Below are positions 22,251-46,658 of a stretch of 64,000 nucleotides of DNA, in pieces. Origin of the DNA: an uncultured archaeon (GTDB lineage: Archaea > Aenigmatarchaeota > Aenigmatarchaeia > CG10238-14); assembly GCA_964373575.1 (NCBI GenBank), contig CAYJVB010000001.1, forward strand, positions 8,262 to 72,261, written 5' to 3'. Numbering within the stretch: the first letter of the stretch is position 1; the number at the start of each line of letters is the position of its first letter. Position numbers and translations under genes: made by a program. Under the pieces are notes generated by a model. The model was not told where the DNA came from. It saw only the letters and a list, made by a program, of their open reading frames with translations, and searched no databases.

Positions 22251-22781
22251 CTAAATTACCTCTATTTTCTTAGCATCAGCATTATATCTTATAGCAATCG
22301 ATTTAGGTCCTGATATTACTCCTGTTTTCCACAATAAAATATTCGAATATCCCTGGTTGTCAAGCAAGGTCTTAACAGAACTTTCCAATACTTCGCCGTT
22401 AACACCTGAAATAATCATTTCATAGCATAACTGGTTTCTTCCGAAATTAGCTGCACCCGTTTTTTGCCAGCATGCAGCTACATGAGTAGCAATTTCGAAA
22501 GATATCTTTTCCGGAATGTTAGTATTCAGTTCTATTGTCTCCAGATTAACAGAAATTTCAGATGAACAATAAACAGGCAATGACGGTCTAAGATGTGAAG
22601 GCAACGGCAGAATAGAAGTCACGCCTTGAAATACAGAACAATAAGCCTTACTCAATGCAGGTTTAATCCTCGTTCCTATCAATGCTATAAGCAGTGATAT
22701 CGCTACGATCGCAAGAATCATGTAAGCAATTGTTGACAATGCAATGCCTTTCATTTTCTCTGTATAATTTATAGCTTTCAT
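22251..22781 (-). CDS. Pilin-like protein. The likely true start is the internal Met at 22754, which gives MKG|IALSTIAYMILAIVAISLLIAL.
   Basis: A class III-type motif follows the second Met. A globular domain follows that. Confidence 0.45.
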   Translation of the reverse strand: MKAINYTEKMKGIALSTIAYMILAIVAISLLIALIGTRIKPALSKAYCSVFQGVTSILPLPSHLRPSLPVYCSSEISVNLETIELNTNIPEKISFEIATHVAACWQKTGAANFGRNQLCYEMIISGVNGEVLESSVKTLLDNQGYSNILLWKTGVISGPKSIAIRYNADAKKIEVI

Positions 22782-22864: not shown

Positions 22865-24319
22865 CTAAACGCTCTTCAACAAACTATATTTTTCCTTGAG
22901 CACCATAATCCTAGTTATCTTTTCTTTTATCAACTCTTTTGAAATTTCTCCAGAATTAATCATAGATACAATAGTCGAATATGCCGCATTAGCATTAGAA
23001 GAAGAGCTAAACAACAGTATATCAACATTTGTCGCAGCCCTTTTTACCATTTCTTCAAATGTTATTCCTAAATGTGTATTTTTGCCTGTAAGCGAATCTG
23101 ATATTAACACAGCATTTGGTGATATTTGTCTAGCCCGGTTTGTTAATGTGGGTGAAAAAACAGCTAAATTATTAGGATCAATATTTGTGTAAACTATGTT
23201 ATTCATCATTATCATATCCAAATCATTTGACAATCCAGCATAAGGTTTTATATCACTATTTTCCAAATCCTGCATAGTTCTGCTATCTGTTGCTTTCTGA
23301 AAATCACTATTGTCCATCTGATTCCCATAACCTGGGAAATGTTTTCCTGTAGCTATGACACCCTCATCATGAAGACCTTTAGCAAAAGCCCTGCCTATAG
23401 TCTCAACATTTGCAGGATTTCCGGAAAAAGATCTTTCTTGATTATATATTAATCCAGACAAGGATACATCCAACACAGGCGCAAGATTGGTATTTAGATT
23501 ATGTTGTTTCATTTCTATTGCGATATCCTTCGCATGATTCTCAATATCTAATATACTCATAGTTCCAGATGTATACCTACTTCCAATATCCCTCGCAGAA
23601 ATTCTTCCAGGATTAAAATCTTTAGGCATTCTTCTAACCAATCCACCTTCTCCATCTGTAGCAACAAAAGGCCATATCTGCACATTGTTTATTACAGTAG
23701 GTATAGGAGAGAAACCGGCTTGTATATTAGAAGCAAACAAATAATAATTTTTATATTTCGTTCCATCAGGTGTAGACATTATCATTTGTTCCACCAATTG
23801 CTCAGTAGTCATTCCATTAACCAGATTAACAGCTAATGAAGGGATAGTTGTTGTAGTTGTAGCAACTGGAATTGTAGTAGTCGTTTCTTCAGTTGGTAAA
23901 GTAGTTGTTGTACTTTTTTTTATCACCTCTTCAGAGAATAATAAAACCTTTCTTTCATACCCATCATATCTTACTTTAATTTGGTATTGTTTGTTCGCAT
24001 CAATTTTTTTGAATTTAATATCCACAAAATCTCTTTTCACTTTTTCTAAATCCTGTTCTATGCCCTTGTCAGTCGAAATAGCTTTAATGACAAAACAGTC
24101 ATCTACAATGCTATCGCTACCAGAATTATGCTTACTCCAGCACAAGTTAGAGCATGTTACAAGATTCTGTACTATTAGCTCTGAGGCCGTATTCTGATCC
24201 AGGTAACATATCTTTGGAACCGTCTGCCAACTAATAGTAATCAAAACAATAACTGTGAATATTGGAACAACAATAAGCAATAACCCAACAACATTTTTTT
24301 CAACAGACAACAGCACCAC
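22865..24319 (-). CDS. Membrane-anchored glycoside hydrolase family 3 (NagZ-like beta-N-acetylglucosaminidase) behind a poly-Thr linker
   Basis: N-terminal TM. Linker TTTTLPTEETTTTIPVATTTTTIPS. GH3 N-domain motifs NLAPVLDV, KHFPGYGN...DSR and VLISDSL (compare NagZ: PVLDL, KHFPGHG..DSH, SDDL). Confidence 0.55.
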   Translation of the reverse strand: MVLLSVEKNVVGLLLIVVPIFTVIVLITISWQTVPKICYLDQNTASELIVQNLVTCSNLCWSKHNSGSDSIVDDCFVIKAISTDKGIEQDLEKVKRDFVDIKFKKIDANKQYQIKVRYDGYERKVLLFSEEVIKKSTTTTLPTEETTTTIPVATTTTTIPSLAVNLVNGMTTEQLVEQMIMSTPDGTKYKNYYLFASNIQAGFSPIPTVINNVQIWPFVATDGEGGLVRRMPKDFNPGRISARDIGSRYTSGTMSILDIENHAKDIAIEMKQHNLNTNLAPVLDVSLSGLIYNQERSFSGNPANVETIGRAFAKGLHDEGVIATGKHFPGYGNQMDNSDFQKATDSRTMQDLENSDIKPYAGLSNDLDMIMMNNIVYTNIDPNNLAVFSPTLTNRARQISPNAVLISDSLTGKNTHLGITFEEMVKRAATNVDILLFSSSSNANAAYSTIVSMINSGEISKELIKEKITRIMVLKEKYSLLKSV

Positions 24320-26345
24320 CCGAACCAGTGACTATAGGAATTATCAATTGTTGGAATGCAATCAATGCTATAACACTAACAGCGCCATAAACCATCATCC
24401 CAGTCATGAGACTCTTCGCTATTAAATAATTTCTTGAAGTTTCATCAAACCCATTCTCAATCCCATTAAGCAATATTGAAAAAATAGTAATGATCTCCAC
24501 AGTATAAATTCCAATAATTATTTGCAACACGGTCATAGGCATTACTTGCGTAAAATTCCCAACAAGGTCATTCAGAATGCTTCCAACACTAGCTGTTGCA
24601 CTTTGAACAAATGCTACACTAAAAGATCTTTCAATCTGTTGCAACTGGCACGAAAGTGTCCTCAGCATATTAAGAAAAAATATACCCAAAACTCCTGTCA
24701 TGGCACAAACAAGTGGCACAACAAAGGTACTCTCCAGTCTAGCACTCGCCCTTACATCCTCCAGCAATTCTTTTATCTTAGCTTCAATATTGTTTAAATT
24801 TTCCAGATACGATCCGATTGTCTTAGCAACATTTCCTAATAGAACAGAACTTTTTGATGAGGCATCACCCAAGATCCTCATTATCTCTTCAATAAGAACC
24901 GAGGGAAAAAATCTAATCAATCCATCTTTGCCAAAAATTGCATTCATAAAATCCGTGCCTAGGTTTTTCATTTTGTTATACAGTTGCGAAAAGAAATTGT
25001 AAGTGGGATTCTTCTGTAGCCCTAGTTTTTCATATTCATCCAAGCTCTTCTCAATACCCTTTTCAATAGGATAACCCTCAGAGAGGAAATTGCCTAAAGT
25101 ATACAAACCCAACTGGAAATCATTTTCAATGCCCTTTATCTGATTTCTGATATTAATTCTAGGAGCACTTTTCATGTAGAAATACAAAAAGAAGAATACT
25201 GCAACGCCGAATGTCACAGAAAATGTAGAGACCAAATTTTCCAGACTAAACTCAGCCTCCTTTTTCAGCATATCAAGCTTCACTCCTTCACTGGCCACCG
25301 ATAAGTTAGAATACAGATCAACAAAATGCAGGACACCATAAACCATTATCAGCAACGACACTACAACAGCAGCAGGCGCAATTGGTATCAAAACAGTTTT
25401 TGTAGATAACCTCAACGGATATCTATTTGTCGGAGGTAGTTGTGGATGTTTGGAAATATCCGGAACCATAAATGCAGATGGTCTCTTGAGTATTATCCTG
25501 TTTACAAGAAACAGCAGCAGCAAAGGCAGTACAACTGTATAACCAATTCCTAAATAAAATGGATTAATAGAGTTATGCAGAAACATTGAAATCAAGGGAA
25601 ACATTATTATTCCCATAACAGGCAGCAGTATTCCAAGAAAATACAAAATATTGATAGGCCCGTTAATATCCTCAACATAAGTCTTCATCTTCCTTTCCGT
25701 GCTTGTCAATAGAAAGTTAAGTGATTTCATCAAAATCCTTTCCCTCTCACCCTCGGATGGTTCAACCAGAATATTGTACAAAAGCGTAATCGATCTTACA
25801 AAATCCTCATTCCACACCCTCCACTTGGCCATATAAACTGCTAGCGCATCCTCAATTGTGTTATATCTCCCTATCTGCAGATCCCACATTACCTTTTTTA
25901 TATCCTTTGACAACGGCCCTTTAGAATGAGCTGCAGCAAAATTCATTGCGCCTTCAAAATTCGGATGCAGTTTAAGGTAGATTACCATATAGAGAATGAT
26001 CTTTATTGATTCGTCGCCTGTTTGTATTCTCAGTACTTGAGACATGAATCTCGGATAAGTGAATACCAGATAGCTTGTAATGGCTGGGATAAGAAGAAGA
26101 AACGGCAATGCACGCAAGTTATTTGCTATCAATGCAAAACTAGCGAATGCTATCGAAAGCAACAAGAATGTTAAAATTGTGGCTGATACAACACCTCTTG
26201 TGGAAACATTGAGTGTTGAAAATACAATATCCTCTTTCAACTGTCTACTTGATTTCTTCGGTAGATCGAGACCCAACACCTCACTATATCTACACAGCTT
26301 CTCAAAACCACTCTTAGCTTCCTTCGCTTCCTTCTCTTGAAACAA
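24300..26345 (-). CDS. TadC/FlaJ/GspF-like polytopic membrane platform protein of a type IV pilus-like system (paralog 1)
   Basis: 681 aa. Cytoplasmic helical domains alternate with TM clusters. Region-by-region similarity to the 39151..41196 protein (VMWDLQIGRYNTIEDALAVYMAKWRVWNEDFVRSI versus ILWDVHTRRYSSVEEALQDFGDKWKVQNEEFTRSL). Architecture matches the T2SS-F / archaeal FlaJ family. Confidence 0.6.
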   Translation of the reverse strand: MFQEKEAKEAKSGFEKLCRYSEVLGLDLPKKSSRQLKEDIVFSTLNVSTRGVVSATILTFLLLSIAFASFALIANNLRALPFLLLIPAITSYLVFTYPRFMSQVLRIQTGDESIKIILYMVIYLKLHPNFEGAMNFAAAHSKGPLSKDIKKVMWDLQIGRYNTIEDALAVYMAKWRVWNEDFVRSITLLYNILVEPSEGERERILMKSLNFLLTSTERKMKTYVEDINGPINILYFLGILLPVMGIIMFPLISMFLHNSINPFYLGIGYTVVLPLLLLFLVNRIILKRPSAFMVPDISKHPQLPPTNRYPLRLSTKTVLIPIAPAAVVVSLLIMVYGVLHFVDLYSNLSVASEGVKLDMLKKEAEFSLENLVSTFSVTFGVAVFFFLYFYMKSAPRINIRNQIKGIENDFQLGLYTLGNFLSEGYPIEKGIEKSLDEYEKLGLQKNPTYNFFSQLYNKMKNLGTDFMNAIFGKDGLIRFFPSVLIEEIMRILGDASSKSSVLLGNVAKTIGSYLENLNNIEAKIKELLEDVRASARLESTFVVPLVCAMTGVLGIFFLNMLRTLSCQLQQIERSFSVAFVQSATASVGSILNDLVGNFTQVMPMTVLQIIIGIYTVEIITIFSILLNGIENGFDETSRNYLIAKSLMTGMMVYGAVSVIALIAFQQLIIPIVTGSGGAVVC

Positions 26346-26442: not shown

Positions 26443-27330
26443 ATGTCCAATTATCGTCTGCTTATACTTTTGGCAGTAATAATCTTTCTTTCAGGCTGCA
26501 CTACTCAGAACGGTGGGCAAACTTATAATAATGAAGTTATAAAAGTTGATGTTGAGGCCCCGCAAAAAGTTTTGCCAAATCAAAACATAGACATAACATT
26601 ATCAATATCAAACACTAACGCAAATCCAGTTTCAAATCTAGATGTTGTAATGACAGATACTTATGGCCTAGATATTGCAAGCATAAATTGCGATCGTGGT
26701 ACAAAAATAGACGGTGGTTGTCATTTCGATTCAGTTGCTGGCTTTGAAAATTTAAGAATAAACTATAAAACCGGAGTACCTAGCACATACGTCACAGGCG
26801 CTACAAGCGTTCAAGTAAATCCAGAAATAACAATAACTTATGATTATTCCGGGCAGACAGTATGGACTATACCGATAGTGAAAAAGAATTACGCGGGCAC
26901 TATTAGCACAAAGCCGCCCACGTCAACTGCAGGTCCGATACAGGCTACTATACAACGAGGCTTAGACGAGAGTAGTCAAGAACAAACCGATAGATTAGCG
27001 GAAGACGGCTATCTATTCATTACCATAACATTAAATGACGCATTAGGCAATCCTATAACAATAACCAAAGATAATTTATGGGTAAAACTCATCAATTTAG
27101 ATATAGACAAAAGTACTAGTGAAAATGTCTGTGATTTTCAGGGAACTCCTGTTAAACTAACTCCTTTAAAAGATGTAGTAATTCCATATGACCCAACATT
27201 AGAATGTGGTTTGCGGGCTAAAAGTGTATTGCAAGAAGATCTAGAAAACGCCCAAATTGAGGTTAATTTCAACTATCAATACAAAATAATCAAAAATACA
27301 CCAATGGAAATTCTTGCTAGAAAGAGATGA
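26443..27330 (+). CDS. Putative lipoprotein / surface protein with CARDB-like beta domains
   Basis: Signal peptide with a lipobox-like LSGC (MSNYRLLILLAVIIFLSGCTTQNGG). DITLSISNTNANPVSNLDVVM is a CARDB-like strand pattern. Confidence 0.45.
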   Translation: MSNYRLLILLAVIIFLSGCTTQNGGQTYNNEVIKVDVEAPQKVLPNQNIDITLSISNTNANPVSNLDVVMTDTYGLDIASINCDRGTKIDGGCHFDSVAGFENLRINYKTGVPSTYVTGATSVQVNPEITITYDYSGQTVWTIPIVKKNYAGTISTKPPTSTAGPIQATIQRGLDESSQEQTDRLAEDGYLFITITLNDALGNPITITKDNLWVKLINLDIDKSTSENVCDFQGTPVKLTPLKDVVIPYDPTLECGLRAKSVLQEDLENAQIEVNFNYQYKIIKNTPMEILARKR

Positions 27331-29885
27331 ATATCGTGATAAAAATAATTTTTCAAACACCAACATCAGATCCACCAAAAGATAAACCCGATTCACCAAA
27401 ACCAGAAGAACCAACAAAAGAAGAACCAAAATCAACAAAACCATCAATTGACTGGAGAACTATAATAATTTTTTTATCATCATTAGCAGTAGCAGGTTCA
27501 ACAGTATTTGCAATCTATTATTTCAAACTCATTACCATATTTCTAGATCCCACATTAGTGATGATCGCTTATGGACTGATTTTTCTCACTATTTTTTTTG
27601 GTATAATGGCTTTGTTCAATATTAGTTTCGCAAAGAAAATTTTAATATTGGTAATAGTAGCAGATATTATTTTTGCTTCTTTTTTCATCTTTGTAAGTAC
27701 TGCTTTTGGAAAGGAAGCTGCAGCATCTGCAATATTCTTCTTCAAAAAAGCCACAAAAGACATCGGTAAAAGTTTTTGTTACCTAAAGCCAGAAAACATT
27801 GCTACTGGCGATTATTCTGATTGTCGGGAAGATGAAGTTGAAAAGGAAGGAGAGTATGAAAGCTTAATGGTGGAGTTTGGTACAAAAGAAGGCAATAATT
27901 TAATACCAATATTAAAACCTGAAAAAGGAGAACCCTACACTTTAGATCTAACTTTGTCTAATGTCAATTCTCAGCAAGATATTGTTGTCAAATCCATTAC
28001 CGCATACGCTTCTGTAACACCCTTATCCGCTTTAAATGATCCAGAAAGATTGTCACTCACCAAAACAGAATATCTCGACGAATTTACATTGAAAGCCGGA
28101 AAACAGCAATGGTTAAGAATTAACTTTGATTCAATACCTGAATGTACTAGTTTAATATATTTCCTTACTAGAACAACAACTTTGCAAAAAGGCGGAGGAA
28201 TTTCATACTTCAGAATAATTCCAACACGTCAGGGCTTAGATGAGAAATATTTTGATACTAAATACACTCTACCATCAACAAAAACTGATGCAGGACCCGT
28301 CGATGCTTACGCCTTTGTCTATTCAACACTTCCTAAATTAATAGTAATGGACGAATTACAAGGAAATAGTTTCGATGTAATAATAAAAGTTGCAAACTTA
28401 TTCAAAAAAGGTGTTGCGGGTGTTAAATCTTTAAACTTATCAACGACTTTTGATTATATCACCATCGACAAATGTTCATCGCCAAAAATTCCTGATATAG
28501 AACTCACAAAATGTTCAGAGCAGGAGCAAGAAAACTGCGTTAAGATGAATTTAGAACAGGAAGAAAATTTAGACATCGCTGATACTCTTGAAATCGACTG
28601 CAAGGCAACAATCGATTCTTCAAAATATGATGAGAATGCAGTCACCGGTTGGATTCGTGTATCAACAGAATATGAACATTCAATAGATTCGGAAGATTTC
28701 CCAAGAAAGGCAGTATGTAATAATCCTACAATAATAGGAGGATCCTTTGGTACAGGCGGATGTCCAGAAAACCAGTGCCTGTTGGACAGACCTTCTAAAA
28801 ACAATGTTCAATATCCTTCATGTGGTAATAAAATTATAGTTGAAGGGACAGATCCAACAAAACCAGATTCATGTGACAGCCCGAAAAATATTTACAACTT
28901 CATACACGATAATTCAAAAACAGCATTGGATCCTTATGATGTAGATAATCCACAGCTCAAATCAGAAATAGAAAGTCAACTTACAACAACTAACTTTTTA
29001 GGTTTATCCGTTCGCATTAACAACAAGGTAGTTCCTAAATTAGCAGAAGTTGAAAACATAATTAACTCTAAATATTCGCATAGCGGTACAACATATGAAT
29101 TCCCAAGCGGTACATATACTTTCAAAAATAGCGGTAGCTACAATTTCAGGACAAATGTTAATAACCCAAGCGTTTTGAGTTCTCATTCTTTTGGTACAGC
29201 ATTGGATTTGAATGCAGAAACAAACTGGGGCAATCTTGCTGGTTACTCATGTCAATTTGATATTCCTCCTGAATTAGTTGAGGCGTTCGAATCTATAGGT
29301 TTCAGATGGGGAGGTAGATATTGGCCTCAGTTAGATCCAATGCATTTTGAGTATATACCAAGTTGTATCTCTACGTCGTCAAGTTCTACTGGAGATAATA
29401 CAATTTTAGCAAAATGTCCGAGCCAAGATGAAATAAAACAAAAAATTGCAAGCACAGCAAAATCTATTGGCGTACCAGTAGATATAATGTTAGCAGTATC
29501 TGAAGTTGAATCAGGCTTCTCGCATTGCGATGCATATGGTAATGTAAAAATAGGAAGAGCAGCAGGAGAAGTAGGTTTATTTCAAGTAACACCCGGAACT
29601 GCTGGTTGTTCTAAAGAATATCTTAGAGATCCAAATAACAATATCGAATGTGGTGTTAAAGTTTTCAAAGGAAAACATGATGCTTATTATCCATCAAATA
29701 GCAATGGCGATAAAACAGATCCAAATGATGTAGACTACGATCCTCTTAATTGCGGTTATTACTATCCCGATGAATGGGACAGAGCTATTAGAGGTTATAA
29801 TGGATGGGGCTGTCCTTACGAATCAAATAAAAATTATGTGAATTTAGTTAAAGATCGAGTGCCAAAATACAGCAGTTATAATTAA
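27327..29885 (+). CDS. Membrane-anchored bifunctional murein hydrolase: VanY/M15-type D-Ala-D-Ala (or L-Ala-D-Glu) peptidase domain plus a lytic transglycosylase (SLT) domain
   Basis: Pro/Lys/Glu-rich N-terminus, then about 4 TM helices. M15 motifs SHSFGTALDLNAE and DPMHFEY (~29170..29350). SLT motifs SEVESGFS ... GLFQVTPGTAG (~29440..29700). Confidence 0.6.
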   Translation: MNIVIKIIFQTPTSDPPKDKPDSPKPEEPTKEEPKSTKPSIDWRTIIIFLSSLAVAGSTVFAIYYFKLITIFLDPTLVMIAYGLIFLTIFFGIMALFNISFAKKILILVIVADIIFASFFIFVSTAFGKEAAASAIFFFKKATKDIGKSFCYLKPENIATGDYSDCREDEVEKEGEYESLMVEFGTKEGNNLIPILKPEKGEPYTLDLTLSNVNSQQDIVVKSITAYASVTPLSALNDPERLSLTKTEYLDEFTLKAGKQQWLRINFDSIPECTSLIYFLTRTTTLQKGGGISYFRIIPTRQGLDEKYFDTKYTLPSTKTDAGPVDAYAFVYSTLPKLIVMDELQGNSFDVIIKVANLFKKGVAGVKSLNLSTTFDYITIDKCSSPKIPDIELTKCSEQEQENCVKMNLEQEENLDIADTLEIDCKATIDSSKYDENAVTGWIRVSTEYEHSIDSEDFPRKAVCNNPTIIGGSFGTGGCPENQCLLDRPSKNNVQYPSCGNKIIVEGTDPTKPDSCDSPKNIYNFIHDNSKTALDPYDVDNPQLKSEIESQLTTTNFLGLSVRINNKVVPKLAEVENIINSKYSHSGTTYEFPSGTYTFKNSGSYNFRTNVNNPSVLSSHSFGTALDLNAETNWGNLAGYSCQFDIPPELVEAFESIGFRWGGRYWPQLDPMHFEYIPSCISTSSSSTGDNTILAKCPSQDEIKQKIASTAKSIGVPVDIMLAVSEVESGFSHCDAYGNVKIGRAAGEVGLFQVTPGTAGCSKEYLRDPNNNIECGVKVFKGKHDAYYPSNSNGDKTDPNDVDYDPLNCGYYYPDEWDRAIRGYNGWGCPYESNKNYVNLVKDRVPKYSSYN

Positions 29886-30790
29886 TTAGGAGAAACAATA
29901 GAGCAAATATCATTATTTGACATTATTACAAAATCATTTGAACATTTAACAACGCTAGGTAAATCTTCTGGTTTATATTTAGAGCCGGTAGCAATTTTTT
30001 CAACTAAAAACTTCACTCCTATTACACTTTCTGTTCTAGAATTTGTTTCAGAATCATATAGCCAATATTTTCCTTTTTCACTAATAACAACCTTAACATA
30101 ATCTAACCTATCTGTTAATTCTATTGCTATTCTATCATTTTCCAATTCACCTTTGATTTCATTCAAATCCTCACCAGAATTTATTTTGTTAATTACTTTT
30201 TCTGCAACATTCAAAATTTCAGCAAAATTTGTTTTCAAATGTGTTTTAATCGAAAATTCTTTAGATATCTTAAAAGGACTTTCATCATAAGTTATTGTAA
30301 CCGAACCCAGATCAACTGAAATTTCTTGCAATTCAAATACACCCACCGCATTTTTCTCATTCCAATCTAAAGACCAATATTTCGATCTACTTCTATCACT
30401 AAAAAATTTAATATAGTCGTTGAAGTAATTTTTGAAGTATGATTTTGATAAATCAGCAATATTTTGTTTAATTTCGTCTCTCGGAACGCTTTTCCAATAT
30501 GGCAATCGTTCTACAAGATTAAACTCAATTGAATTAGTTTTAGTTACCGAAATTTGCCCAATGTCTTTTACTGTCTGCAAAGTAGCCAAATCACCCGCCA
30601 TTTGTATCATTTTTCCTGTAGTTTCTAGTCTATTCCCCTCTTGCAGAATTTTTTCTTGAAACGACCTTTTTTCAATAATAATTTTCGTTCCAAAGAAGAA
30701 CAAAGCTCCTACCACAGCAAGTACTAACATAATAGCTATCCCAACTACAAAAAACCCCTTTTTATTGCTCGCCATTTCGTATCTAATCAT
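29882..30790 (-). CDS. Pilin-like protein (class III N-terminus); last gene of the minor-pilin operon
   Basis: MIRYEMASNKKG|FFVVGIAIMLVLAVVGALFFFG. Confidence 0.45.
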   Translation of the reverse strand: MIRYEMASNKKGFFVVGIAIMLVLAVVGALFFFGTKIIIEKRSFQEKILQEGNRLETTGKMIQMAGDLATLQTVKDIGQISVTKTNSIEFNLVERLPYWKSVPRDEIKQNIADLSKSYFKNYFNDYIKFFSDRSRSKYWSLDWNEKNAVGVFELQEISVDLGSVTITYDESPFKISKEFSIKTHLKTNFAEILNVAEKVINKINSGEDLNEIKGELENDRIAIELTDRLDYVKVVISEKGKYWLYDSETNSRTESVIGVKFLVEKIATGSKYKPEDLPSVVKCSNDFVIMSNNDICSIVSPN

Positions 30791-31259
30791 AAGTCGAAAA
30801 TTCCCCCGGAATTACGAAATTTCTACCATCATAAATTTGTGGAAACACAAAAGTTGTTCTAAAGTTATATTTTCCTGTTACAAAATTTCGTTTGCTATTG
30901 CAGGAAACGTCATGACCACCAGAAATAACATGATCTCTGTCATTTTTTATACCTCCAAGCAAAAATTTATAGCAGGTCGAAGAAGCTAATTTATTCATAG
31001 TTTCTTCTAATTCTGTTGAAGTTTGCACCTCATCCTTCACTAAAGCAACAGCCAAATTGTCGTTATTTAAATAATATCTTGAATTTACAATTGCAAGCGG
31101 TATTAAACTGTTCTGACTTAAAGTTATTGTCTGCTCTCTGGCAACTGTTATGGTATATGTAAAAAGGTAAACAAATATGACAAGTGAAATAGCTGCAAAA
31201 ACTAGAAAAATGTTTATTGCTAATAGAGTTGCAATTCCCTTAGAATCCATCCGGAACAT
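30783..31259 (-). CDS. Pilin-like protein (class III N-terminus)
   Basis: MFRMDSKG|IATLLAINIFLVFAAISLVIFVYLF. It overlaps its neighbours by 8 and 20 nt, which indicates operon coupling. Confidence 0.45.
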   Translation of the reverse strand: MFRMDSKGIATLLAINIFLVFAAISLVIFVYLFTYTITVAREQTITLSQNSLIPLAIVNSRYYLNNDNLAVALVKDEVQTSTELEETMNKLASSTCYKFLLGGIKNDRDHVISGGHDVSCNSKRNFVTGKYNFRTTFVFPQIYDGRNFVIPGEFSTYD

Positions 31260-32076
31260 TTAAAATCACTCTCGTACCATCGTTTTCTATTTTAGCAGGG
31301 AAACAGCCTATTGGCCATCTTTCAGTTGATATTTCATCAATTCTTTTGTTAACTTCTTGTATGTTAAAACCACAGCTTATAACTTTACAAAGCTCTGTTC
31401 CATCTGAGGATAAGATGCATATTTTATAGTTATTAGTAGAGGATATTTTTTCAATTTTGATACCATCACTCGTTTGCATCAATTCATAAATGCTTATATC
31501 ATTTGAATATTTATTTTTAGAACATGCAATAGCTAAATTATTAGCGATATTTGAAAGTGGTGTTTTTACCAAATTAATCTTCATTTCAGCAGGATATCTT
31601 TCATTGTTTCCATCTGCAATAACTACGGGTATGCTATAAGTCCTCAAAAACTTTTCACCAGGAATTTGTTTGCATTTTTTACCCTGTTCAAAAAAATTTT
31701 TAATTGAGACAGCAGGAAATCCGATATCAAAAGACTCTTCTGTCTTCAAATTTTTTACTTGGAGTGAATAATCATATTCTATGTAGCTGCAACAATCTAA
31801 CTCTTTTTTTGAATCTCTAATTTCAATCAACTTTTCTTTTGAAATAACCGCTTTCTCTGGCTGGTTATTAGTATCTTTGACAACGAGATCAGAAGATGTT
31901 GCTATAACATTCAATATATTAATCGCCTTTCCGACTTCTTCATAAACCTCCTTTTCATTTTTGAATTTTACAATGTCACCAGTTAGAAAACCAAAAATTA
32001 GAATAACAACGGATAAAGTAACTAAAGCGCCAATTAACTCTCCAAAACCTATTGCTATAGATAATCCTTTATTCAA
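31240..32076 (-). CDS. Pilin-like protein (class III N-terminus)
   Basis: MNKG|LSIAIGFGELIGALVTLSVVILIFGFL. The Glu in GFGELIG resembles the conserved Glu of type IV pilins. Confidence 0.5.
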   Translation of the reverse strand: MNKGLSIAIGFGELIGALVTLSVVILIFGFLTGDIVKFKNEKEVYEEVGKAINILNVIATSSDLVVKDTNNQPEKAVISKEKLIEIRDSKKELDCCSYIEYDYSLQVKNLKTEESFDIGFPAVSIKNFFEQGKKCKQIPGEKFLRTYSIPVVIADGNNERYPAEMKINLVKTPLSNIANNLAIACSKNKYSNDISIYELMQTSDGIKIEKISSTNNYKICILSSDGTELCKVISCGFNIQEVNKRIDEISTERWPIGCFPAKIENDGTRVILNVPDGF

Positions 32077-32527
32077 TAATTTCCACCTTCAATTTGTTAA
32101 TAGAATATTCTTTTCTGATTTTTACATCAAAAAAATTCTCAATTTTATCGGGTGCAGTGAAATCAACTCCAGAGCTCGATGAAGTTTTCTTGAAAAGGTT
32201 TTCCAGTTCTTCTTGATTAAATCCTAATGGCAATGATGTAGCTCCCTGTTCTGCATCTATAAAAACCATTCTTCTACCAAATAACGCCGTATAAAAAAAT
32301 TTTGTTGCTGGTTTTAAATAAATTATTTCAACAGAACCCGGAACACCAGCGGATACAGTAATAAGCTCGCTTAAACCATCACTTACAGCCTCTGAACTTC
32401 CTTTGACAAAAAAGTAAGTGAATACGGCAACACCTTCGAGTATTTTACCGGCCATCATTAAGGTAATAATAAAAATACCGATCGTAATTAAGATAAAATT
32501 TAACGCCTCTTTACCCATTCCAAACAC
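32069..32527 (-). CDS. Possible pilin-like/membrane protein in the pilin operon
   Basis: MFGMGKE|ALNFILITIGIFIITLMMAG hydrophobic N-terminus. Coupled to its neighbours. Confidence 0.35.
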   Translation of the reverse strand: MFGMGKEALNFILITIGIFIITLMMAGKILEGVAVFTYFFVKGSSEAVSDGLSELITVSAGVPGSVEIIYLKPATKFFYTALFGRRMVFIDAEQGATSLPLGFNQEELENLFKKTSSSSGVDFTAPDKIENFFDVKIRKEYSINKLKVEIIE

Positions 32528-33200
32528 ATCCTATTTGTTTTTCACAAGCTTCCTCGCCTTTCACTATAATATTTCCACTTGCATCTACTATATCGTGGAA
32601 TGAGTAGCAGGGTATAACTGTGCCTAAACATTTATCAATATCAGGACATATAGCTCGTCTACATGATGTATCTCTTGTTTTAACTAAACTACATCCTTTT
32701 TGTCCTCCGCATTTATCTAAAGGCGAACTGCTTGATACGCCAAACAATGTACAAATAGCTGCATCACCAGTACATCTCGGTATAAAAACTTCTTTCACTG
32801 TTATTACAACATCATACTCTTTAGCTTTAGAAGCGTCAAGTTTACCACCCTCTTTAGAGAAGTCAAAGATCACAGAATTCATTCCATATGGACACTGTGT
32901 ATTTATCTTTCGAATAAAATCTTCATTCTTCAACCGGTATTCTAAGTTCATGTCACTTCCTTTGAATTCAGCATACGTTACGCAATCCAGCAGCTCAATT
33001 TTAGAAATATCGTCAATATCAGAATCTCCTATTTGACAAGCCCTATCTATAATTCCACTTATTTTGTTTTTAAAAAGATAATTGCACGCATCATTTTTTA
33101 CTTTCTGTCCTATTACACCAGAAATCGCTACAACAACACCTATAATCAAAACAGTTCCTATAATTACCACTATGAACGAATCAACGCTGCCTTTCATCAA
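32511..33200 (-). CDS. Pilin-like protein with a Cys-rich globular domain
   Basis: MMKG|SVDSFIVVIIGTVLIIGVVVAISGVIG. Twelve Cys in the C-terminal domain. Confidence 0.45.
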   Translation of the reverse strand: MMKGSVDSFIVVIIGTVLIIGVVVAISGVIGQKVKNDACNYLFKNKISGIIDRACQIGDSDIDDISKIELLDCVTYAEFKGSDMNLEYRLKNEDFIRKINTQCPYGMNSVIFDFSKEGGKLDASKAKEYDVVITVKEVFIPRCTGDAAICTLFGVSSSSPLDKCGGQKGCSLVKTRDTSCRRAICPDIDKCLGTVIPCYSFHDIVDASGNIIVKGEEACEKQIGCVWNG

Positions 33201-33239
33201 TTAAGAATAGATTTTTGTGGTTATTTATTTTATCTTGAG

Positions 33240-33542
33240 TTAAACATCTTCGCAATCTATAATTGCACCACCTGAAGAACCAGGTTTGCATACTGCCTCG
33301 TTATCACAAAAATCTCCTCTACCACCAAAATTACCACTACATTTTCCATCTGTATCAGAAAAATCTTTTGGAAAATCTCCTGTTTGTAAAGTACACCACT
33401 CAGCTAACAACGCTTTACATCCATTGAAAGCAACAGAATCTCTAAATGGTCCCAATCCAAGATATAATAAACTTACAATAACACCAAGAACTATTAACGC
33501 TAAAATAATCTTAACAATCGTTTCTTGAGCCATTCCTTTCAT
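33240..33542 (-). CDS. Small pilin (100 aa). It is the best candidate for the major pilin or a pseudopilin subunit.
   Basis: MKG|MAQETIVKIILALIVLGVIVSLLYLGLG is a class III signal with Glu at +4 and a hydrophobic helix, followed by a short Cys-containing head. Confidence 0.5.
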   Translation of the reverse strand: MKGMAQETIVKIILALIVLGVIVSLLYLGLGPFRDSVAFNGCKALLAEWCTLQTGDFPKDFSDTDGKCSGNFGGRGDFCDNEAVCKPGSSGGAIIDCEDV

Positions 33543-33604
33543 TGTACCACTAAACTAGATTTGATTTTTTTCTATATTAATCTTTCCTATCACTCAGAAA
33601 TCCG

Positions 33605-33763
33605 TTAAAATATGTTTTCCAAACCCTTCTTAATGGTTTCTATAACTTTTGTGATTAAGTCGGGTGCAGATTTTGACAAAATAAACAGCGTTACAACTAG
33701 TAAAACTAAAAACACTATCCCAACAACTAATAAAACTAGAATTTTTTGGCTTTCTTCTGGCAT
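33605..33763 (-). CDS. Small membrane protein of 52 aa (MPEESQKILVLLVVGIVFLVLLVVTLFILSKSAPDLITKVIETIKKGLENIF). It is the first gene of the pilin operon and is not in the ORF track.
   Basis: Clean ATG...TAA ORF on the minus strand with a single TM helix. The plus-strand ORF 33612..33821 over the same DNA looks less plausible. Confidence 0.3.
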   Translation of the reverse strand: MPEESQKILVLLVVGIVFLVLLVVTLFILSKSAPDLITKVIETIKKGLENIF

Positions 33764-33789: not shown

Positions 33790-33905
33790 CTATCTCTAAA
33801 GTATACTTCACTTGGAGTTAAATATCCTAGTGCTTGATTCTTTTGTAATTGTAATATGTCACAAATCCATTCAATGTCTTGAATTTGTTGTCTTCTTCTT
33901 CATAA
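33790..33905 (-). pseudogene. Remnant of an integrase/transposase (rve-type DDE) C-terminus; degraded mobile-element scar
   Basis: The minus-strand frame translates to ELVKKIVIRWYRTYEEEDNKFKTLNGFVTYYNYKRIKH*. This resembles the conserved C-terminal FN..L..FI.YYN..R.H tail of IS3/IS481/retroviral-type integrases, but it is bounded by stops and no full ORF exists. Confidence 0.3.
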
Positions 33906-34142
33906 GTCCTATACCATCTGATGACGATTTTTTTCACTAATTCTTAAATGACTAGCAATCGTATAATTAGTCTACCATCAATTTTCTTTTCATAATCAAT
34001 CTTCTCTATCTTAATTCTCTACCCACAATATCGCCCCCTGTTTAATTGTTATAATAGGAGTGACTTATGTTATAGGACAGCACAAAATTTTCATGAACCC
34101 AATAAACTTAAATAATAATATGAGCCATTCTTTTTGATATAA

Positions 34143-34529
34143 ATGTTTCAAGATCCAAAAACAAGAGAATATATAAAAATTGAACCAAATTTGCTTTATA
34201 GAACTGATGAAGCAGCTGCTTTTTTAAAAGTTGAACCTGGTACAGTCAGGGTTATGATAAGAGATGGAAGATTAGATGCCACATATTTAGGAAGATATCG
34301 TGTTTTAGGTCAAACTTTATTGAATATGACAGAATATGCTCCTCCGATAGATGTTCTATATACTCCAGAAGAAGTCGCCGCATATCTAAGATACAGAACA
34401 CGTACTATACATGCTATGATAAGAAATGGGAGATTGAAAGCAGTTGATATTTCAGGAGGCGGAAAACCTCGTTATAGAGTCTGGAAAAAAGACATTCAAG
34501 CATTATTAACCAATTATTCAGTTAAATAA
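34143..34529 (+). CDS. Protein with two tandem excisionase-family (HTH_17/MerR-like) DNA-binding domains
   Basis: Internal repeat: AAAFLKVEPGTVRVMIRDGRLDATYLGRYRV versus VAAYLRYRTRTIHAMIRNGRLKAVDISGGGKPRYRV. This is the pattern of Xis / helix-turn-helix_17 domains. Confidence 0.5.
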   Translation: MFQDPKTREYIKIEPNLLYRTDEAAAFLKVEPGTVRVMIRDGRLDATYLGRYRVLGQTLLNMTEYAPPIDVLYTPEEVAAYLRYRTRTIHAMIRNGRLKAVDISGGGKPRYRVWKKDIQALLTNYSVK

Positions 34530-34557
34530 TAAAAAGCAAAAGAAACCTCTTATATTT

Positions 34558-35166
34558 TCAATACCGTCTATATTTTTCTTTAAGTTTCGTAAATTTATCA
34601 TCTTTTTTCTTTAGTCTCCAAACATAAATAACAACAGCACTTACAATCCCAACAATTGAAAATATAATGAGAGTTTTCATGTTACCGGGTTTTATAATTG
34701 TTGTGGTAGTCGTTATAGATACACATTCTTTCGGGCAAATAAGTTCAGATTCTCCCCTATCAGATTCACAAATATTATTCTCATTGCAGATGTAACCCGA
34801 AAGCTCAACCTCTTTTATAACCGTATCATTATGCAAAAATCTGATAGTTCTATATTCATCATTCCACGGTATTCTATGATACGCTCGCGAATAATTCACT
34901 TCACCAACTTCAAACTTATAGAAAACGACAGGAATCGTCAACGCCACTAAAGTGTTATTTCCTTCTCCTCTAATAAATAACTGATACTCCTCCGTTCCAG
35001 GTGTATAAAATACTGTTCCATTAGAATATTTTATATCAACTATCTCAATAGAATCATCTATGTATATAACATAATTCAAAATCAAAATCGGTTCTGCATA
35101 TGATATTTGTAACAAAAACAACAAACTAAATAGCAGACTAACAAAAACAATGATAAATTTAGTCAC
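34558..35166 (-). CDS. Secreted protein with a C-terminal TM anchor (202 aa); function unknown
   Basis: Sec signal MTKFIIVFVSLLFSLLFLLQISYA. C-terminal TTTTIIKPGNMKTLIIFSIVGIVSAVVIYVWRLKKKDDK. Confidence 0.45.
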   Translation of the reverse strand: MTKFIIVFVSLLFSLLFLLQISYAEPILILNYVIYIDDSIEIVDIKYSNGTVFYTPGTEEYQLFIRGEGNNTLVALTIPVVFYKFEVGEVNYSRAYHRIPWNDEYRTIRFLHNDTVIKEVELSGYICNENNICESDRGESELICPKECVSITTTTTIIKPGNMKTLIIFSIVGIVSAVVIYVWRLKKKDDKFTKLKEKYRRY

Positions 35167-37642
35167 AATAACCAGCCTCTCTAATTCTTACCAATATAGA
35201 ATTATAACCTTCCGAGCCAAATTTAACCGGATTTCCCACCATAATATAATTACCTTGACTATCTCTATACATATTTCCCCCACCACCCATTATATCTGTA
35301 TCATATGGTGGAGAGTTACCACCTATTTTCTTTCCACATGTTCCAAGATCGCAAGCAGTGTTATCAACACTGCAATCTGTATCACATTTATCATCTGGAC
35401 CTATTCCATTATCTAATGGATATGGGTTCCCACAACTAGAAAAAGGTTGAGATTCTTTCAGAATACCAAAATTCTTAAAACGAACATTTTGTCCTTCCCA
35501 AGTAAATCTATCATATTCATCGCATAACTTAAATTTATGTCCAATTTCATGCGCAGGACAAGTTCTATCAAGACCTTCAGGTAAACCACCGAAGCACATA
35601 GCAAAAGGTAACACCATATCTGCAAACCCATTTACTATAGGATCATCACTAAGTGCAAATACTAAATCATGATCATTTAAACCCATATTTTCAACACACT
35701 GTAAAACTTCTTGTTCGCAAATGTCCCATGTAGAATCATAATCACTTAAATCGGGGCATTGACAATTCTGATCTAAAATCCTTATGTCAATTCCATTTCT
35801 GCATTCTCTGAAAGGAGATTCTTCCAAAAATGTATTCATCCTATCTTGAGCTCTTTTTCTATATGCATTCATGTCGTCATAATTCACAGCAACAACATAA
35901 ATTCTATAACGATTAGCTAATTTTATTATATTTCCAGTATATTCAGCTTTATTAGAGTTACCCGCCTTATCGCCAGCAATTGTTACAAGTTTGTATTCCC
36001 CCACTCGGTTCAATATAAAGGAGCCAGTACAACTTACAAGGAAACTTACTCTATTATGACCTATTGATGCAGCTAAATCCAAACTATCACAATCTAGATC
36101 TTGACTATAATACCGAGCTCCATTTTGTTCTATGTACATTTCTATAGAATCTTTATCAAGGTTCACATCTTCATCATAGATTAGAGCTTTAGCAATAATA
36201 GGCGAGTTTGTGTAACCAAAAGTTGGTATAGTATACGCATCTATGACAGGCAAGTTATCGTCCGGTAATATTGTAACAGAAGTTTCAATATTATTTTCCT
36301 TTGTAGTTTCAAATCCAGACTGACTTCTGCAGGAAATGTAGTATTTTTTCTCTTCCACCATTCCATTGTTTAGGCCAAAACATAGTATATAATCCGAAAA
36401 TGTTGTTGTATTAGGGTATAAATTATCTTGAGTGACGAGATTGAAATTATCATAATTGGGGCAATCCAAAGTCATCTCATCGAAATTTAGATCTCTATCC
36501 GATATCCTACAAATTGAATTTTCTGAAGGAATAACCCGAATCATAGGATTTAATTGTTTTGTGCTGGAAGGACTATCAATAGATGCAAAACATTTAACAT
36601 CGGGTTTATTATCATATGTAATCTCTTCTTCACAAACTGGACAACTTTTTGTTGTCAAGACATTATAAGTACAAGATTTGTCAGAAGCAAAACACCCATA
36701 AAGCCTTCTTTCTGCTGTATAATCATTGGCACAAAACCACCCATTACTAGATGTACATGATTCAGGACACGAAATTATTTCTCTGTCTTTACACCCAGGA
36801 TATTCAGATAGGTCATAATCATAATAAGCTGGATTATCTTGCCAACTTATTTTATCATCGTCATTCAAATCACAATCATATGGAAAACAGTTATCTGCTC
36901 CTGAGTCATAAGTATCGTCAAATATGTTATAATCTAACTTATCCCTTATACCATCCACATTTATATCAGGACAAGCACCTATAGGACAATTTGAGAATTC
37001 TGAAGCCAATTTTCCTAAGTTATCTTCAACCCATTGACGGTCTTCTTCATCTACAATTCCATTATTATCAAAATCACAATCAGTTACCCATGCAGCAGCA
37101 CAATACGACTCCCCTAAACTATATCTAAGATCATCAACATCTTTCTGATCTATTAACCCATCTCTATTTCCGTCAGGACAATCAAATTCCAATTTTGGTT
37201 CAATAGTTAGACTTATAACATTACTCTCAAAATCAAGCTTCTCTTCTCTTACGTTGTATCCTCCAACAAGTCTAAGCTGATAATCACCACTTTCTTTTAT
37301 ACAGTCTGAAATTCTGAATTCTCCCTTTATGGCTCTTTCTCCTTTGACAATCACGAAATCTCCAATTTTATAAATTTTACAAAATTTCCATTCTTCATTA
37401 GAACTTGCCTTTCTATACTGAACTCCAAGCTGATAATCTTTTTCTGCCAAAAAAGCTTCAATTCTGTCAGTGAAATCAAATTCAAAAGTAAAAAAATCTT
37501 TCAGACTACCTTTTGTTCTTAACCCAAGAGTTGGTTCTGCAGCTTGCAGTGTATCTAATAGAATAACTGTTACAAGAATCGTAGCTAACAACACAACACA
37601 AAATTTTGTTTTATTCACGTAATCCTCCTCTAAATGTTTCAA
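35159..37642 (-). CDS. Secreted zinc metalloprotease (HExxH) with multiple Ca2+-binding Dx[DN]xDG (thrombospondin-type-3/dockerin-like) repeats
   Basis: Signal peptide. Repeats DCPDGNRDGLIDQKDVDD, DCDFDNNGIVDEED and CPDINVDGIRDKLD. C-terminal HEIGHKFKLCDEYD zincin motif. Confidence 0.55.
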   Translation of the reverse strand: MKHLEEDYVNKTKFCVVLLATILVTVILLDTLQAAEPTLGLRTKGSLKDFFTFEFDFTDRIEAFLAEKDYQLGVQYRKASSNEEWKFCKIYKIGDFVIVKGERAIKGEFRISDCIKESGDYQLRLVGGYNVREEKLDFESNVISLTIEPKLEFDCPDGNRDGLIDQKDVDDLRYSLGESYCAAAWVTDCDFDNNGIVDEEDRQWVEDNLGKLASEFSNCPIGACPDINVDGIRDKLDYNIFDDTYDSGADNCFPYDCDLNDDDKISWQDNPAYYDYDLSEYPGCKDREIISCPESCTSSNGWFCANDYTAERRLYGCFASDKSCTYNVLTTKSCPVCEEEITYDNKPDVKCFASIDSPSSTKQLNPMIRVIPSENSICRISDRDLNFDEMTLDCPNYDNFNLVTQDNLYPNTTTFSDYILCFGLNNGMVEEKKYYISCRSQSGFETTKENNIETSVTILPDDNLPVIDAYTIPTFGYTNSPIIAKALIYDEDVNLDKDSIEMYIEQNGARYYSQDLDCDSLDLAASIGHNRVSFLVSCTGSFILNRVGEYKLVTIAGDKAGNSNKAEYTGNIIKLANRYRIYVVAVNYDDMNAYRKRAQDRMNTFLEESPFRECRNGIDIRILDQNCQCPDLSDYDSTWDICEQEVLQCVENMGLNDHDLVFALSDDPIVNGFADMVLPFAMCFGGLPEGLDRTCPAHEIGHKFKLCDEYDRFTWEGQNVRFKNFGILKESQPFSSCGNPYPLDNGIGPDDKCDTDCSVDNTACDLGTCGKKIGGNSPPYDTDIMGGGGNMYRDSQGNYIMVGNPVKFGSEGYNSILVRIREAGYCD

Positions 37643-38663
37643 CTAGTTCTGAACCAAGTTTAGTAACTACAAAAGTAAATGGAAATGTGACAAGATCATC
37701 AGTTTTCTTAGGTAATAGAGCAGTTGTTATTTTATATTTGCTATCGCAAAATGTCATCTCCATATCACTATCGCTCGAACAAAATTCTTTTTGTTCCGGA
37801 ACTGGTTTATTTCCACATTTAAAATTGAGTTTAATCAAATAATCTTCTGAATTCGTGCAACCGTCGGGATAGACATCTTTTATTAAAACGCCATCATTCA
37901 GCCCTAAAGGATAAAATTCATTTAATTTTAAATTCATAGTTTTTTCAACATTCTGTTCAATATTTCTATCAGAATAAAAATCAAAAACTATTAATGATTC
38001 ATCAACGTTAGTTACAAAAGTTATAGGAATTGACTCTTCAATGAATTTTTGTTTTATTGCATCATAATAAAATGGGTTTGAATCACCAGATATTAATATA
38101 GTCTCCGACCCTCTTATTTTTACACCTTCTACACCACATTGAGACGGATCACTTCCATACTCATCAGTAACAATATTGTCAGTTACTACTATCGTATTTG
38201 GCTGAAGTAATCCTTTAAACATATTAGATAGAGCCAGATAATCAAGTGCGCCAGCAGTAGACGTTTCAATACATTGATAATTTTCTCCTAAATTGGATTT
38301 TTCAATCCATGAATCCTTATTGTCTAATTGCACGATTATAGGAAACTGAAATCCACAAATCCTATCACTACCAATAAAATTAATTATTTCAGGATTGCAA
38401 TAATTGCTACATCTAAAATCAGAAGCGTCATCTTTTATATTTTTTACTTCATCACTATCACACCCATAATAACATCTGGCCATAACACACTGAGCTGCTA
38501 GTTCTGCAACACTCGTTCCCTGAAAGCATTTAAATGGGTCTTCTTTAACACAGGGATTATTTCCTAAAATTGATAAAAAAGCAACTAAAGCAAGAATTAC
38601 AAAAACAGCAACTAGAAAATACATAACTAACTTGCTTGTACCTATATCAGAATTTCCTTTCAT
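37611..38663 (-). CDS. Membrane-anchored/secreted Cys-rich protein (350 aa)
   Basis: MKGNSDIGTSKLVMYFLVAVFVILALVAFLSILG N-terminal anchor and about 16 Cys. Its ATG overlaps the stop of the upstream micro-ORF (ATGA). Confidence 0.4.
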   Translation of the reverse strand: MKGNSDIGTSKLVMYFLVAVFVILALVAFLSILGNNPCVKEDPFKCFQGTSVAELAAQCVMARCYYGCDSDEVKNIKDDASDFRCSNYCNPEIINFIGSDRICGFQFPIIVQLDNKDSWIEKSNLGENYQCIETSTAGALDYLALSNMFKGLLQPNTIVVTDNIVTDEYGSDPSQCGVEGVKIRGSETILISGDSNPFYYDAIKQKFIEESIPITFVTNVDESLIVFDFYSDRNIEQNVEKTMNLKLNEFYPLGLNDGVLIKDVYPDGCTNSEDYLIKLNFKCGNKPVPEQKEFCSSDSDMEMTFCDSKYKITTALLPKKTDDLVTFPFTFVVTKLGSELVETFRGGLRE

Positions 38664-46649: not shown

Positions 46650-46658
46650 GGTGAAAAA

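Follow-up and report, generated by a model that had tools for sequence, protein, structure and literature searches.

We consider it likely that seven consecutive minus-strand genes in a 64,000-nt stretch of archaeal DNA (hereafter the window) represent the rapidly evolving distal half of an archaeal type IV pilus (T4P)-like filament operon of Candidatus Aenigmatarchaeota, a DPANN lineage. The genes are named here in order of transcription, as a micro open reading frame (micro-ORF) followed by g1 to g6, and every one was recovered in an ORF listing on the minus strand, with the coordinates claimed for it in an earlier annotation of this DNA (the original prediction). The central proposal of that annotation, that the genes encode pilin-like components of a type IV filament system, is upheld by their linkage to genes of the T2SSF and T2SSE families, by six syntenic loci, by a conserved Lys-Gly (K-G) site and by a structural model of g4. 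The genes are as follows, where a slash marks the putative cleavage site.

33605-33763, minus strand: micro-ORF, 52 amino acids (aa) beginning MPEESQKILVLLVVG, extendable to 33781 (58 aa)
33240-33542, minus strand: g1, 100 aa, MKG/MAQETIVKIILALIVLGVIV, class III-type N-terminus and a small Cys-rich head
32511-33200, minus strand: g2, 229 aa, MMKG/SVDSFIVVIIGTVLIIGVVV (MMKG/SVDSF...), Cys-rich and pilin-like
32069-32518, minus strand: g3, 149 aa from ATG 32518 (MGKEAL...), in an ORF that reaches GTG 32527 (152 aa, MFGMGKEAL)
31240-32076, minus strand: g4, 278 aa, MNKG/LSIAIGFGELIG, or at greater length MNKG/LSIAIGFGELIGALVTLSVVIL, with a modelled lollipop architecture
30783-31259, minus strand: g5, 158 aa, MFRMDSKG/IATLLAINIFLVF, or at greater length MFRMDSKG/IATLLAINIFLVFAAISLVIF, with IATLL after the KG, class III-type
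29882-30775, minus strand: g6, 297 aa from ATG 30775, MASNKKG/FFVVGIAIMLVLAVVGALFFF (FFVVG), the largest and last putative subunit

Synteny of the probable filament operon

The window is archaeal, as indicated by an archaeal signal recognition particle RNA, and the closest loci belong to metagenome-assembled genomes (MAGs) of Candidatus Aenigmatarchaeota. Its G+C content is ~34%. The predicted filament machinery of the window, and the pilin-like genes that accompany it, lie on the same strand as the seven-gene block, which starts 5.4 kb downstream of platform 1.

41165-44914, minus strand: secretion ATPase (FlaI/CpaF/GspE2-like; Pfam T2SSE, Intein_splicing and LAGLIDADG_3)
39151-41196, minus strand: platform protein 1 (FlaJ/TadC/T2SSF family; 681 aa, Pfam T2SSF)
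38995-39150, minus strand: mini pilin-like gene, 51 aa, MKG/VSREVITTVIML (MKG/VSREV)
38789-38998, minus strand: mini pilin-like gene, 69 aa, MMKKG/ISGH
38660-38788, minus strand: leaderless mini pilin-like gene, 42 aa, METKFIVGLIIALIIL (METKFIVGLII)
37611-38663, minus strand: Cys-rich 350-aa protein, MKG/NS..., whose counterparts of 205-363 aa directly precede the micro-ORF in relatives
24300-26345, minus strand: platform protein 2 (T2SSF paralogue; 681 aa, 29% identity to platform 1)

A platform-protein scan of species-representative genomes identified three loci (L002-L004) with 71-75% identity, one in a Candidatus Aenigmatarchaeota MAG and two in MAGs labelled 'uncultured archaeon'. Each of these loci encodes, on one strand, an ATPase, a platform protein, K-G mini-pilins of 48 and 67-71 aa (L002 adds a 47-aa ORF), a 324-363-aa protein and a micro-ORF of 60-61 aa, followed by proteins of 104-106, 330-346, 143-148, 256-278, 183-184 and 456-462 aa and then by a convergent hydrolase and lipoprotein pair. 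The same gene order was found in the more distant loci L007, L009 and L013, which are contigs of g4-family members, while L012 is a variant in which the order is partly kept. In all six of the former relatives (L002-L004, L007, L009 and L013), the block directly follows the ATPase and platform genes on the same strand.

All seven window proteins share 21-38% identity with their positional counterparts, compared with the 71-75% of the platform protein. Judged by position and sequence, these counterparts are true orthologues whose evolution has been much more rapid than that of the platform, a pattern expected of surface-exposed subunits. The ancestral order can be read as an ATPase, a platform protein, two to three mini-pilins, a Cys-rich pilin-like protein of ~200-360 aa, the micro-ORF and g1-g6. 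On this comparative evidence the block is the distal half of a conserved type IV filament operon of ~13-14 genes, and its separation in the window is secondary. The original prediction had instead described an autonomous seven-gene operon led by the micro-ORF. This does not hold, given that the same genes are contiguous with the ATPase and platform genes in six relatives and are split here by an insertion; the leading position of the micro-ORF is an accident of that insertion.

The mini pilin-like genes (38660-39150) have orthologues in L002, L004 and L013. Neither the 51-aa nor the 42-aa product has a record in a collection of 15 billion proteins, and both ORFs are probably uncalled genes. 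The ATPase gene is interrupted by an intein of ~490 aa (about 41786-43279) with a LAGLIDADG homing endonuclease, whereas the L002 orthologue (759 aa) is intein-free; the latter matches Archaeoglobus GspE2 (2OAP, 2e-25), CpaF and FlaI, as well as NCBIfam FlaI/TadA models. A second platform gene occupies the same relative position in L007 and L013, and those loci also have one ATPase and two platforms.

The segment that separates the block from the rest of the operon has the following features.

33790-37642 (~3.8 kb), mixed strands: inserted segment
35159-37642, minus strand: 827-aa secreted protein with a HEIGH zinc-protease-like motif and DxDxDG-type repeats
34558-35166, minus strand: secreted protein of 202 aa, with signal peptide and C-terminal anchor
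34143-34529, plus strand: double HTH_17 (excisionase-like) gene (Pfam)
~33790-33900, minus strand: frameshifted C-terminal remnant of an integrase core, reading ...FVTYYNYKR and then NQALGYLTPSEVYFRDR

In L002-L004, no such segment separates the 324-363-aa gene from the micro-ORF. When its frameshift is repaired, the integrase remnant matches rve_2/rve_3 at E~1e-3, below the gathering score. The segment 33790-37642 was probably left behind by a mobile element whose insertion split the operon.

Start codons and gene junctions

Orthologue alignments and Shine-Dalgarno (SD)-like GGTG sites led us to prefer ATG 33763 for the micro-ORF, ATG 32518 for g3 and ATG 30775 for g6. An SD-like GGTGGG lies 8 nt 5' of ATG 33763 and none precedes the start of the 58-aa version (33781), while g5 has an SD-like GAGTGAT upstream. 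An alternative ATG at 30790 would give a g6 product of 302 aa that adds MIRYE before MASNKKG. Existing records in the protein collection list g3 as 149 aa, g6 as 297 aa and the micro-ORF as 58 aa, so the earlier description of the micro-ORF as unlisted is not strictly correct.

With the preferred starts, the overlaps of 8-20 nt that had been reported between neighbouring genes are seen at g2/g3 (8 nt, or 17 nt if GTG 32527 is used), g3/g4 (8 nt) and g4/g5 (20 nt). They are not seen at the first two junctions, where gaps of 62 nt (micro-ORF to g1) and 39 nt (g1 to g2) are present, and at g5/g6 the result depends on the start, as the genes are 7 nt apart and overlap by 8 nt solely with ATG 30790. 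No terminator-like hairpin was detected within the seven-gene block. A scan for bacterial sigma-70 promoters showed no enrichment, although this consensus is uninformative for an archaeon, and no archaeal TATA/BRE element could be assigned confidently. The tight packing of the block is confirmed; from it we infer co-transcription and coupled translation.

Class III signal peptide motifs across orthologues

To score N-termini, we used our own approximation of FlaFind, which requires [KR][GA] followed by two permissive positions and a 17-residue window with a mean Kyte-Doolittle value >2, within the first ~25 residues. This rule matches 14 of the 248 window ORFs of at least 45 aa, all of which lie at 6.6-39.2 kb on the minus strand. 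Codon-shuffled windows gave 0.06 matches each, with a maximum of one (50 shuffles). The motif signal is real, well above chance and spreads far past the seven genes.

All seven proteins had been put forward as class III members, with basic-Gly N-termini for those quoted. The quoted starts are right for g1, g2, g4, g5 and g6 (five of the six larger proteins), and these five carry the motif, but g3 (MGKEAL) and the micro-ORF (MPEESQK) do not. The g3 N-terminus, MFGMGKEALNFILITIGIFIITL, is a hydrophobic helix that lacks a basic-Gly leader, and that of the micro-ORF, MPEESQKILVLLVVGIVFLVLLV (MPEESQKILV...), is a hydrophobic helix with no Gly site in the window genome. In g1, g2, g4, g5 and g6, at least 20 mostly uncharged hydrophobic residues follow the K-G, which is the length of a transmembrane (TM) helix and not of a Sec h-region. 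The hydrophobic stretch begins directly after the K-G, in the first 3-12 residues, and there is no AxA-type c-region.

Conservation of the putative cleavage site was assessed across up to eight loci (the window plus L002, L003, L004, L007, L009, L012 and L013). The site is best kept in g1, g5 and g6, despite identities of 23-38% between orthologues. For g1, Gly or Ala is found at -1 in all eight loci (KG, KG, KG, KG, KA, KKG, KKG and TG), and the alignment features invariant K2 and G3, a G-x-G-P-F motif and five Cys. K-G is present in all eight g5 orthologues and in six of seven for g6, where the L012 orthologue has E-S-G. KG or TG occurs in g2 at five of eight loci; L009 has KG, and L012 and L013 have neither. 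For g3, the protein starts with MG[DK] in four loci and has KIG/V in one, with no Gly site in three (L007, L012 and L013); among close relatives the starting M-G is invariant, as is the motif AVSD..E.IT.S.G.PG...IY. Only five of 26 aligned g4-family members have K-G, while the others begin MELSLPT, MELDDF, MPELEDL, MVELSVSEF or similar. The cleavage-site context, whose absence had been named as the observation that would overturn the class III assignment, is therefore conserved in g1, g5 and g6, mostly conserved in g2 and the micro-ORF family, and not conserved in g3 and g4. The sequences of g3 and g4 suggest that these proteins may never be processed.

Orthologues of the micro-ORF (54-61 aa) occupy the same position in L002, L003, L004, L009 and L013. 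The motif is present in five of the six loci, the window being the sixth, and reads MNKIG/M, MNKIG/M, MNKRG/M, MKG/L and MKKG/I across the five relatives. A role as a regulatory leader peptide was also considered and is ruled out, as the relatives encode it as a conserved protein whose start is class III-like. Its sequence is that of a conserved mini single-helix pilin-like protein, one of four tiny proteins predicted at this locus.

Structure and homology of the seven proteins

An AlphaFold2 model of g4, built with 26 family members, has a predicted local distance difference test score (pLDDT) of 90.5 and a predicted template modelling score (pTM) of 0.81. In this model, a continuous helix (residues 11-61, 51 residues) leads into a mixed alpha/beta head with repeated beta-beta-alpha units, and the modelled protein resembles type IV pilin-like proteins in its overall build. 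The globular domain has no match in the PDB. Several cysteines are invariant in g4, and invariant Cys are also found in g1, g2 and g6, which fits extracellular heads.

None of the seven proteins matched a Pfam or NCBIfam family at a meaningful E-value. PDB profile searches with g1, g3, g5 and g6 were equally negative; their top-scoring alignment, with an archaeal 'flagellin' chain (8fk7, E 0.33), covered the N-terminal helix alone. Word-indexed homologue searches with g6, g4 and the g6 alignment yielded almost nothing beyond the query itself, and metagenome scans gave no match with the g4 alignment and a single 2-kb contig with the platform alignment. A full HMMER scan with a g4 profile identified 43 cluster representatives (E<=1e-3) among 1.84 billion. 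On the strength of these searches, the seven proteins appear to be lineage-restricted pilin-like families with no detected homology to named pilin families. The idea that they are paralogues of one another or of other pilin-like genes in the window was rejected, as likeness in all-against-all BLASTP was limited to the hydrophobic N-termini.

Proposed assembly and weight of evidence

What is demonstrated comprises the genomic linkage, a conserved gene order, conserved K-G sites in three or more families and a single lollipop model. The mechanism that follows is modelled on class III signal peptide proteins of Methanococcus, Sulfolobus and Haloferax. The proteins would insert in the membrane via the N-terminal hydrophobic helix, and those with a K/R-G/A site (g1, g5, g6, usually g2, and the micro-ORF product of the relatives) would be cut by a PibD/FlaK/EppA-type peptidase encoded elsewhere. 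The ATPase and platform would then pull the cut proteins out of the membrane and into a helical filament whose cohesion comes from the N-terminal helices. By analogy with Epd/Flp-type pili, candidates for the shaft are the proteins of 42-100 aa with little or no head (the mini-pilins, the micro-ORF product and g1). The larger Cys-rich g2, g5 and g6 could be low-abundance subunits that prime or cap the filament with their heads exposed. With a helix-plus-head build and no conserved cleavage site, g3 and g4 are probably membrane-anchored assembly or anchoring parts, comparable to ArlF and ArlG, which are membrane-anchored components of the archaellum. The insertion would have cut the seven genes from their upstream promoter, such that they may now be transcribed as a unit of their own or rely on read-through.

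Several points count against a filament operon of this kind. No conserved cleavage site is found in g3, g4 or the micro-ORF of the window. Peptidase_A24 (prepilin peptidase) was absent from the 40 window ORFs scanned with Pfam, and no prepilin peptidase appears in the precomputed Pfam annotation of L007, L009, L012 and L013. One of the seven proteins was confidently modelled; a g6 model built from two sequences was unreliable (pLDDT 50). The shaft, minor and anchor roles are assigned from size and analogy alone. With regard to the first of these points, the leaderless members begin about where a processed pilin would begin, and they may enter the filament unprocessed or stay in the membrane. 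As a side reading, g3, g4, the micro-ORF and the 42-aa ORF could be 'leaderless pilins' that need no prepilin peptidase.

Pilin-like sets of this sort are already known in archaea, and a block like this one is to be expected in archaeal type IV filament loci. Its seven small lineage-restricted families enlarge the pool of unannotated archaeal pilin-like proteins. For annotation, its value is that a series of 'hypothetical proteins' and at least two uncalled mini-genes become a defined model of a 13-14-gene Aenigmatarchaeota operon.

Links to cell wall hydrolases and alternative readings

The aspect most worth following is that peptidoglycan or glycan hydrolases are repeatedly linked to this operon, in some cases by fusion to the pilin-like subunits themselves, which offers a concrete clue to possible interactions of these archaea with bacteria. 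The relevant genes are listed below.

L012, 7028-9571, plus strand: g2-position protein, 847 aa, Glyco_hydro_cc and Cellulase domains
L012, 11310-13118, plus strand: g6 orthologue, 602 aa, C-terminal Amidase_2 (5.8e-35)
Window, 26443-29885, plus strand: convergent pair of a lipoprotein (295 aa) and a multi-TM 852-aa protein (27327-29885) with Peptidase_M15_4 and SLT
Relatives, convergent genes: L002 18291-20300, L004 18377-20884, L012 13169-15583, L007 12318-13802, L013 7492-8940
Window, 11295-13784, minus strand: pilin-leader hydrolase, 829 aa, MKG/DVSEVILTVGILIAVGIALFLL (MKG/DVSEV) with SLT, Peptidase_M14 and a weak M23
Window, 22865-24319, minus strand: membrane-anchored GH3 whose best NCBIfam match is NagZ-type beta-N-acetylhexosaminidase (below cut-off); overlaps the end of the platform 2 gene

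These genes raise the question of whether the system is a secretion or display machine and not an adhesive pilus: a short pseudopilus, or a 'functionalised' filament, that exports or presents cell wall and glycan hydrolases and with which the archaeon attaches to, opens or feeds on bacterial cells. We regard this as a tentative proposal that is unlikely on present evidence. It draws support from L012, where Amidase_2 is part of the g6 orthologue and the protein in the position of g2 has Glyco_hydro_cc and Cellulase domains. The relationship to the window proteins is supported by BLASTP for g6 (3e-34 over the shared domains) and by hhalign for g2 against the N-terminus of the 847-aa protein (probability 91%). 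However, these fusions are found in one relative alone, and Pfam recognises no enzyme domain in g2 or g6 of the window.

The stop codon of the convergent multi-TM gene (27327-29885) overlaps that of g6 by 4 nt, and the core domain of its product is common to the window, L013 (E 5e-14) and L002 (E 2e-4). The C-terminal lytic module varies: it consists of M15_4 and SLT in the window, M23 in L002 and L004, and SLT in L012, but no lytic domain is recognisable in L007 or L013. Elsewhere in the window, the 11295-13784 gene fuses a class III-type N-terminus to SLT and M14 domains, and the membrane-anchored NagZ-like GH3 adjoins platform 2. Here, the best NCBIfam match of the M14 domain is murein tripeptide amidase MpaA, and both the MpaA and NagZ matches are under curated cut-offs.

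To our knowledge, murein synthesis is not known in this group of archaea, and T2SS-like secretion (that is, by a type II secretion system) has not been demonstrated in archaea. Binding proteins with class III signal peptides have been proposed to 'functionalise' archaeal type IV filaments (bioRxiv 10.64898/2026.04.22.720090), peptidoglycan hydrolases of DPANN archaea have been read as signs of predation (PMC9723730), and archaeal peptidoglycan hydrolases are able to kill bacteria (PMC12352652). Overall, one ATPase, two platforms and more than 15 pilin-like proteins share an island of ~39 kb with domains of the lytic transglycosylase, M15, M14, M23, amidase and NagZ-like types, and it is conceivable, if doubtful, that the subunits are carriers of enzymes that act on murein and glycans. 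If true, this would give a DPANN archaeon a contact-dependent apparatus for attaching to bacterial walls and breaching them, an archaeal functional counterpart of the T2SS or of the attack pili of candidate phyla radiation (CPR) bacteria.

It is very improbable that the seven proteins are ordinary membrane-anchored or Sec-secreted surface proteins with plain signal anchors that are co-located with pilus genes without being filament subunits: the missing cleavage sites of g3, g4, the micro-ORF and the 42-aa ORF, the lack of homology to known pilins and the absence of a peptidase among the scanned window ORFs are in keeping with such proteins, but the hydrophobic stretch of at least 20 residues directly after the K-G with no AxA-type c-region, the retention of K-G in g1, g5 and g6 amid such divergence, the fixed order immediately behind the ATPase and platform genes in relatives, and a g4 helix whose 51 residues are far beyond the need of a membrane anchor all argue otherwise.

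Other genes of the window

Further pilin-like genes are found outside the operon. At 6648-13784 (minus strand), K-[GA] and hydrophobic N-termini are common to four large proteins encoded in succession (689, 156, 664 and 829 aa), and this run is a second pilin-like set without an ATPase or platform of its own. The C-terminus of the 664-aa protein features a short Cys motif that is common to g4 (BLASTP 6e-4). The adjacent minus-strand genes at 13788-15269 and 15294-15800 encode paralogues with 65% identity over 152 residues and leaderless hydrophobic N-termini (MADTILLAVGGIVLG and MPETIILAAGGIIIG, respectively). After these come a 202-aa signal peptide protein and a possible adhesin, a secreted protein of 1010 aa that has Laminin_G_3 and Cys-rich Stig1-like domains. 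The GH3 gene is followed by three small genes, two of which encode K-G N-termini (22251-22781 and 21392-21838).

Just past the ATPase gene, three tandem paralogous membrane proteins (169, 191 and 211 aa) are encoded on the plus strand at 46140-47814. They share the N-terminal motif G-x-F-x-(F/V)-x-(V/L)-P-F-L-(I/L)-T and belong to no Pfam family. At 2304-2410 (plus strand), Rfam identified a tRNA over 107 nt (61 bits), whereas ARAGORN found none in the window, which fits an intron-containing archaeal tRNA.

Comparison with known systems

The original prediction had likened the block to the minor pilin sets of bacterial T4P and T2SS tip complexes. These bacterial sets comprise four to five low-abundance proteins that are thought to prime and cap the filament. 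The likeness stands as a functional analogy: as in GspH-I-J-K and FimU-PilV-PilW-PilX-PilE, several distinct pilin-like genes are arranged in a row with overlaps, and one encodes a large subunit of GspK/PilX-like size. It does not extend to homology, as no N_methyl or T2SSI/J/K Pfam domains were found and there is no Glu at +5, where g1, g2, g4, g5 and g6 have T, F, I, L and G, respectively. The block also differs from the bacterial sets in its archaeal-type leader, ATPase and platform, and in having two members with no conserved cleavage site.

The micro-ORF product and the 51-aa, 69-aa and 42-aa proteins, each roughly one helix with a short amphipathic tail, resemble the head-less pilins of Tad/Flp and EpdE type, and the match between the ATPase and CpaF is a further similarity to Tad systems. 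Unlike Flp, they lack a G/xxxxEY motif, and two of the four tiny proteins are leaderless in the window genome. The Sulfolobus bindosome provides another parallel, since functional domains there are also carried on a class III-type N-terminus alongside a type IV filament ATPase and platform, as in the 11295-13784 protein and in the L012 g2 and g6 proteins. The attached domains differ, being peptidoglycan or glycan hydrolases and not solute-binding domains, and no ABC (ATP-binding cassette) transporter is linked to the locus.

Archaeal T4P loci with one ATPase and two TadC genes have been described, and such loci typically contain five or more predicted minor pilins (PMC4858521). The Epd pilus locus of Methanococcus maripaludis has been assigned to 'clade 1' (Makarova et al. 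2016, PMC4858521) and to 'System 1' (bioRxiv 10.64898/2026.04.22.720090), and Sivabalasarma & Albers (2026) report two-platform systems in DPANN, with System 1 in some DPANN (bioRxiv 10.64898/2026.04.22.720090). Like Epd/System 1, the window has one FlaI-like ATPase and two TadC/FlaJ-like platform genes in a long cluster with several class III proteins. The major Epd pilin is very small and head-less, and the mini-pilins described here match it by architecture alone. Unlike in Epd, the platform genes of the window are not adjacent but 13 kb apart, with the convergent hydrolase pair between them. EppA substrates have Gln at +1, whereas the residue after Gly in the window proteins is M, S, L, I or F. 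In the searches made here, no homology of the seven proteins to the Epd pilin families (arCOG06620 and others) was detected, and no EppA gene was found in the cluster.

A parallel in overall character is with the DPANN islands of 'dark matter' signal peptide proteins next to FlaI/TadC, which have been read as probably diverse pilins (Makarova, Wolf & Koonin 2019, PMC6393860, Fig. 2A). As in those islands, the window features small unannotated proteins with hydrophobic N-termini that show no likeness to the pilins of other archaea and are encoded beside T4P core genes. That study gave a general reading based on a few example loci, and the conserved seven-gene order, the mini-proteins and the hydrolase fusions are described here from our own analysis.

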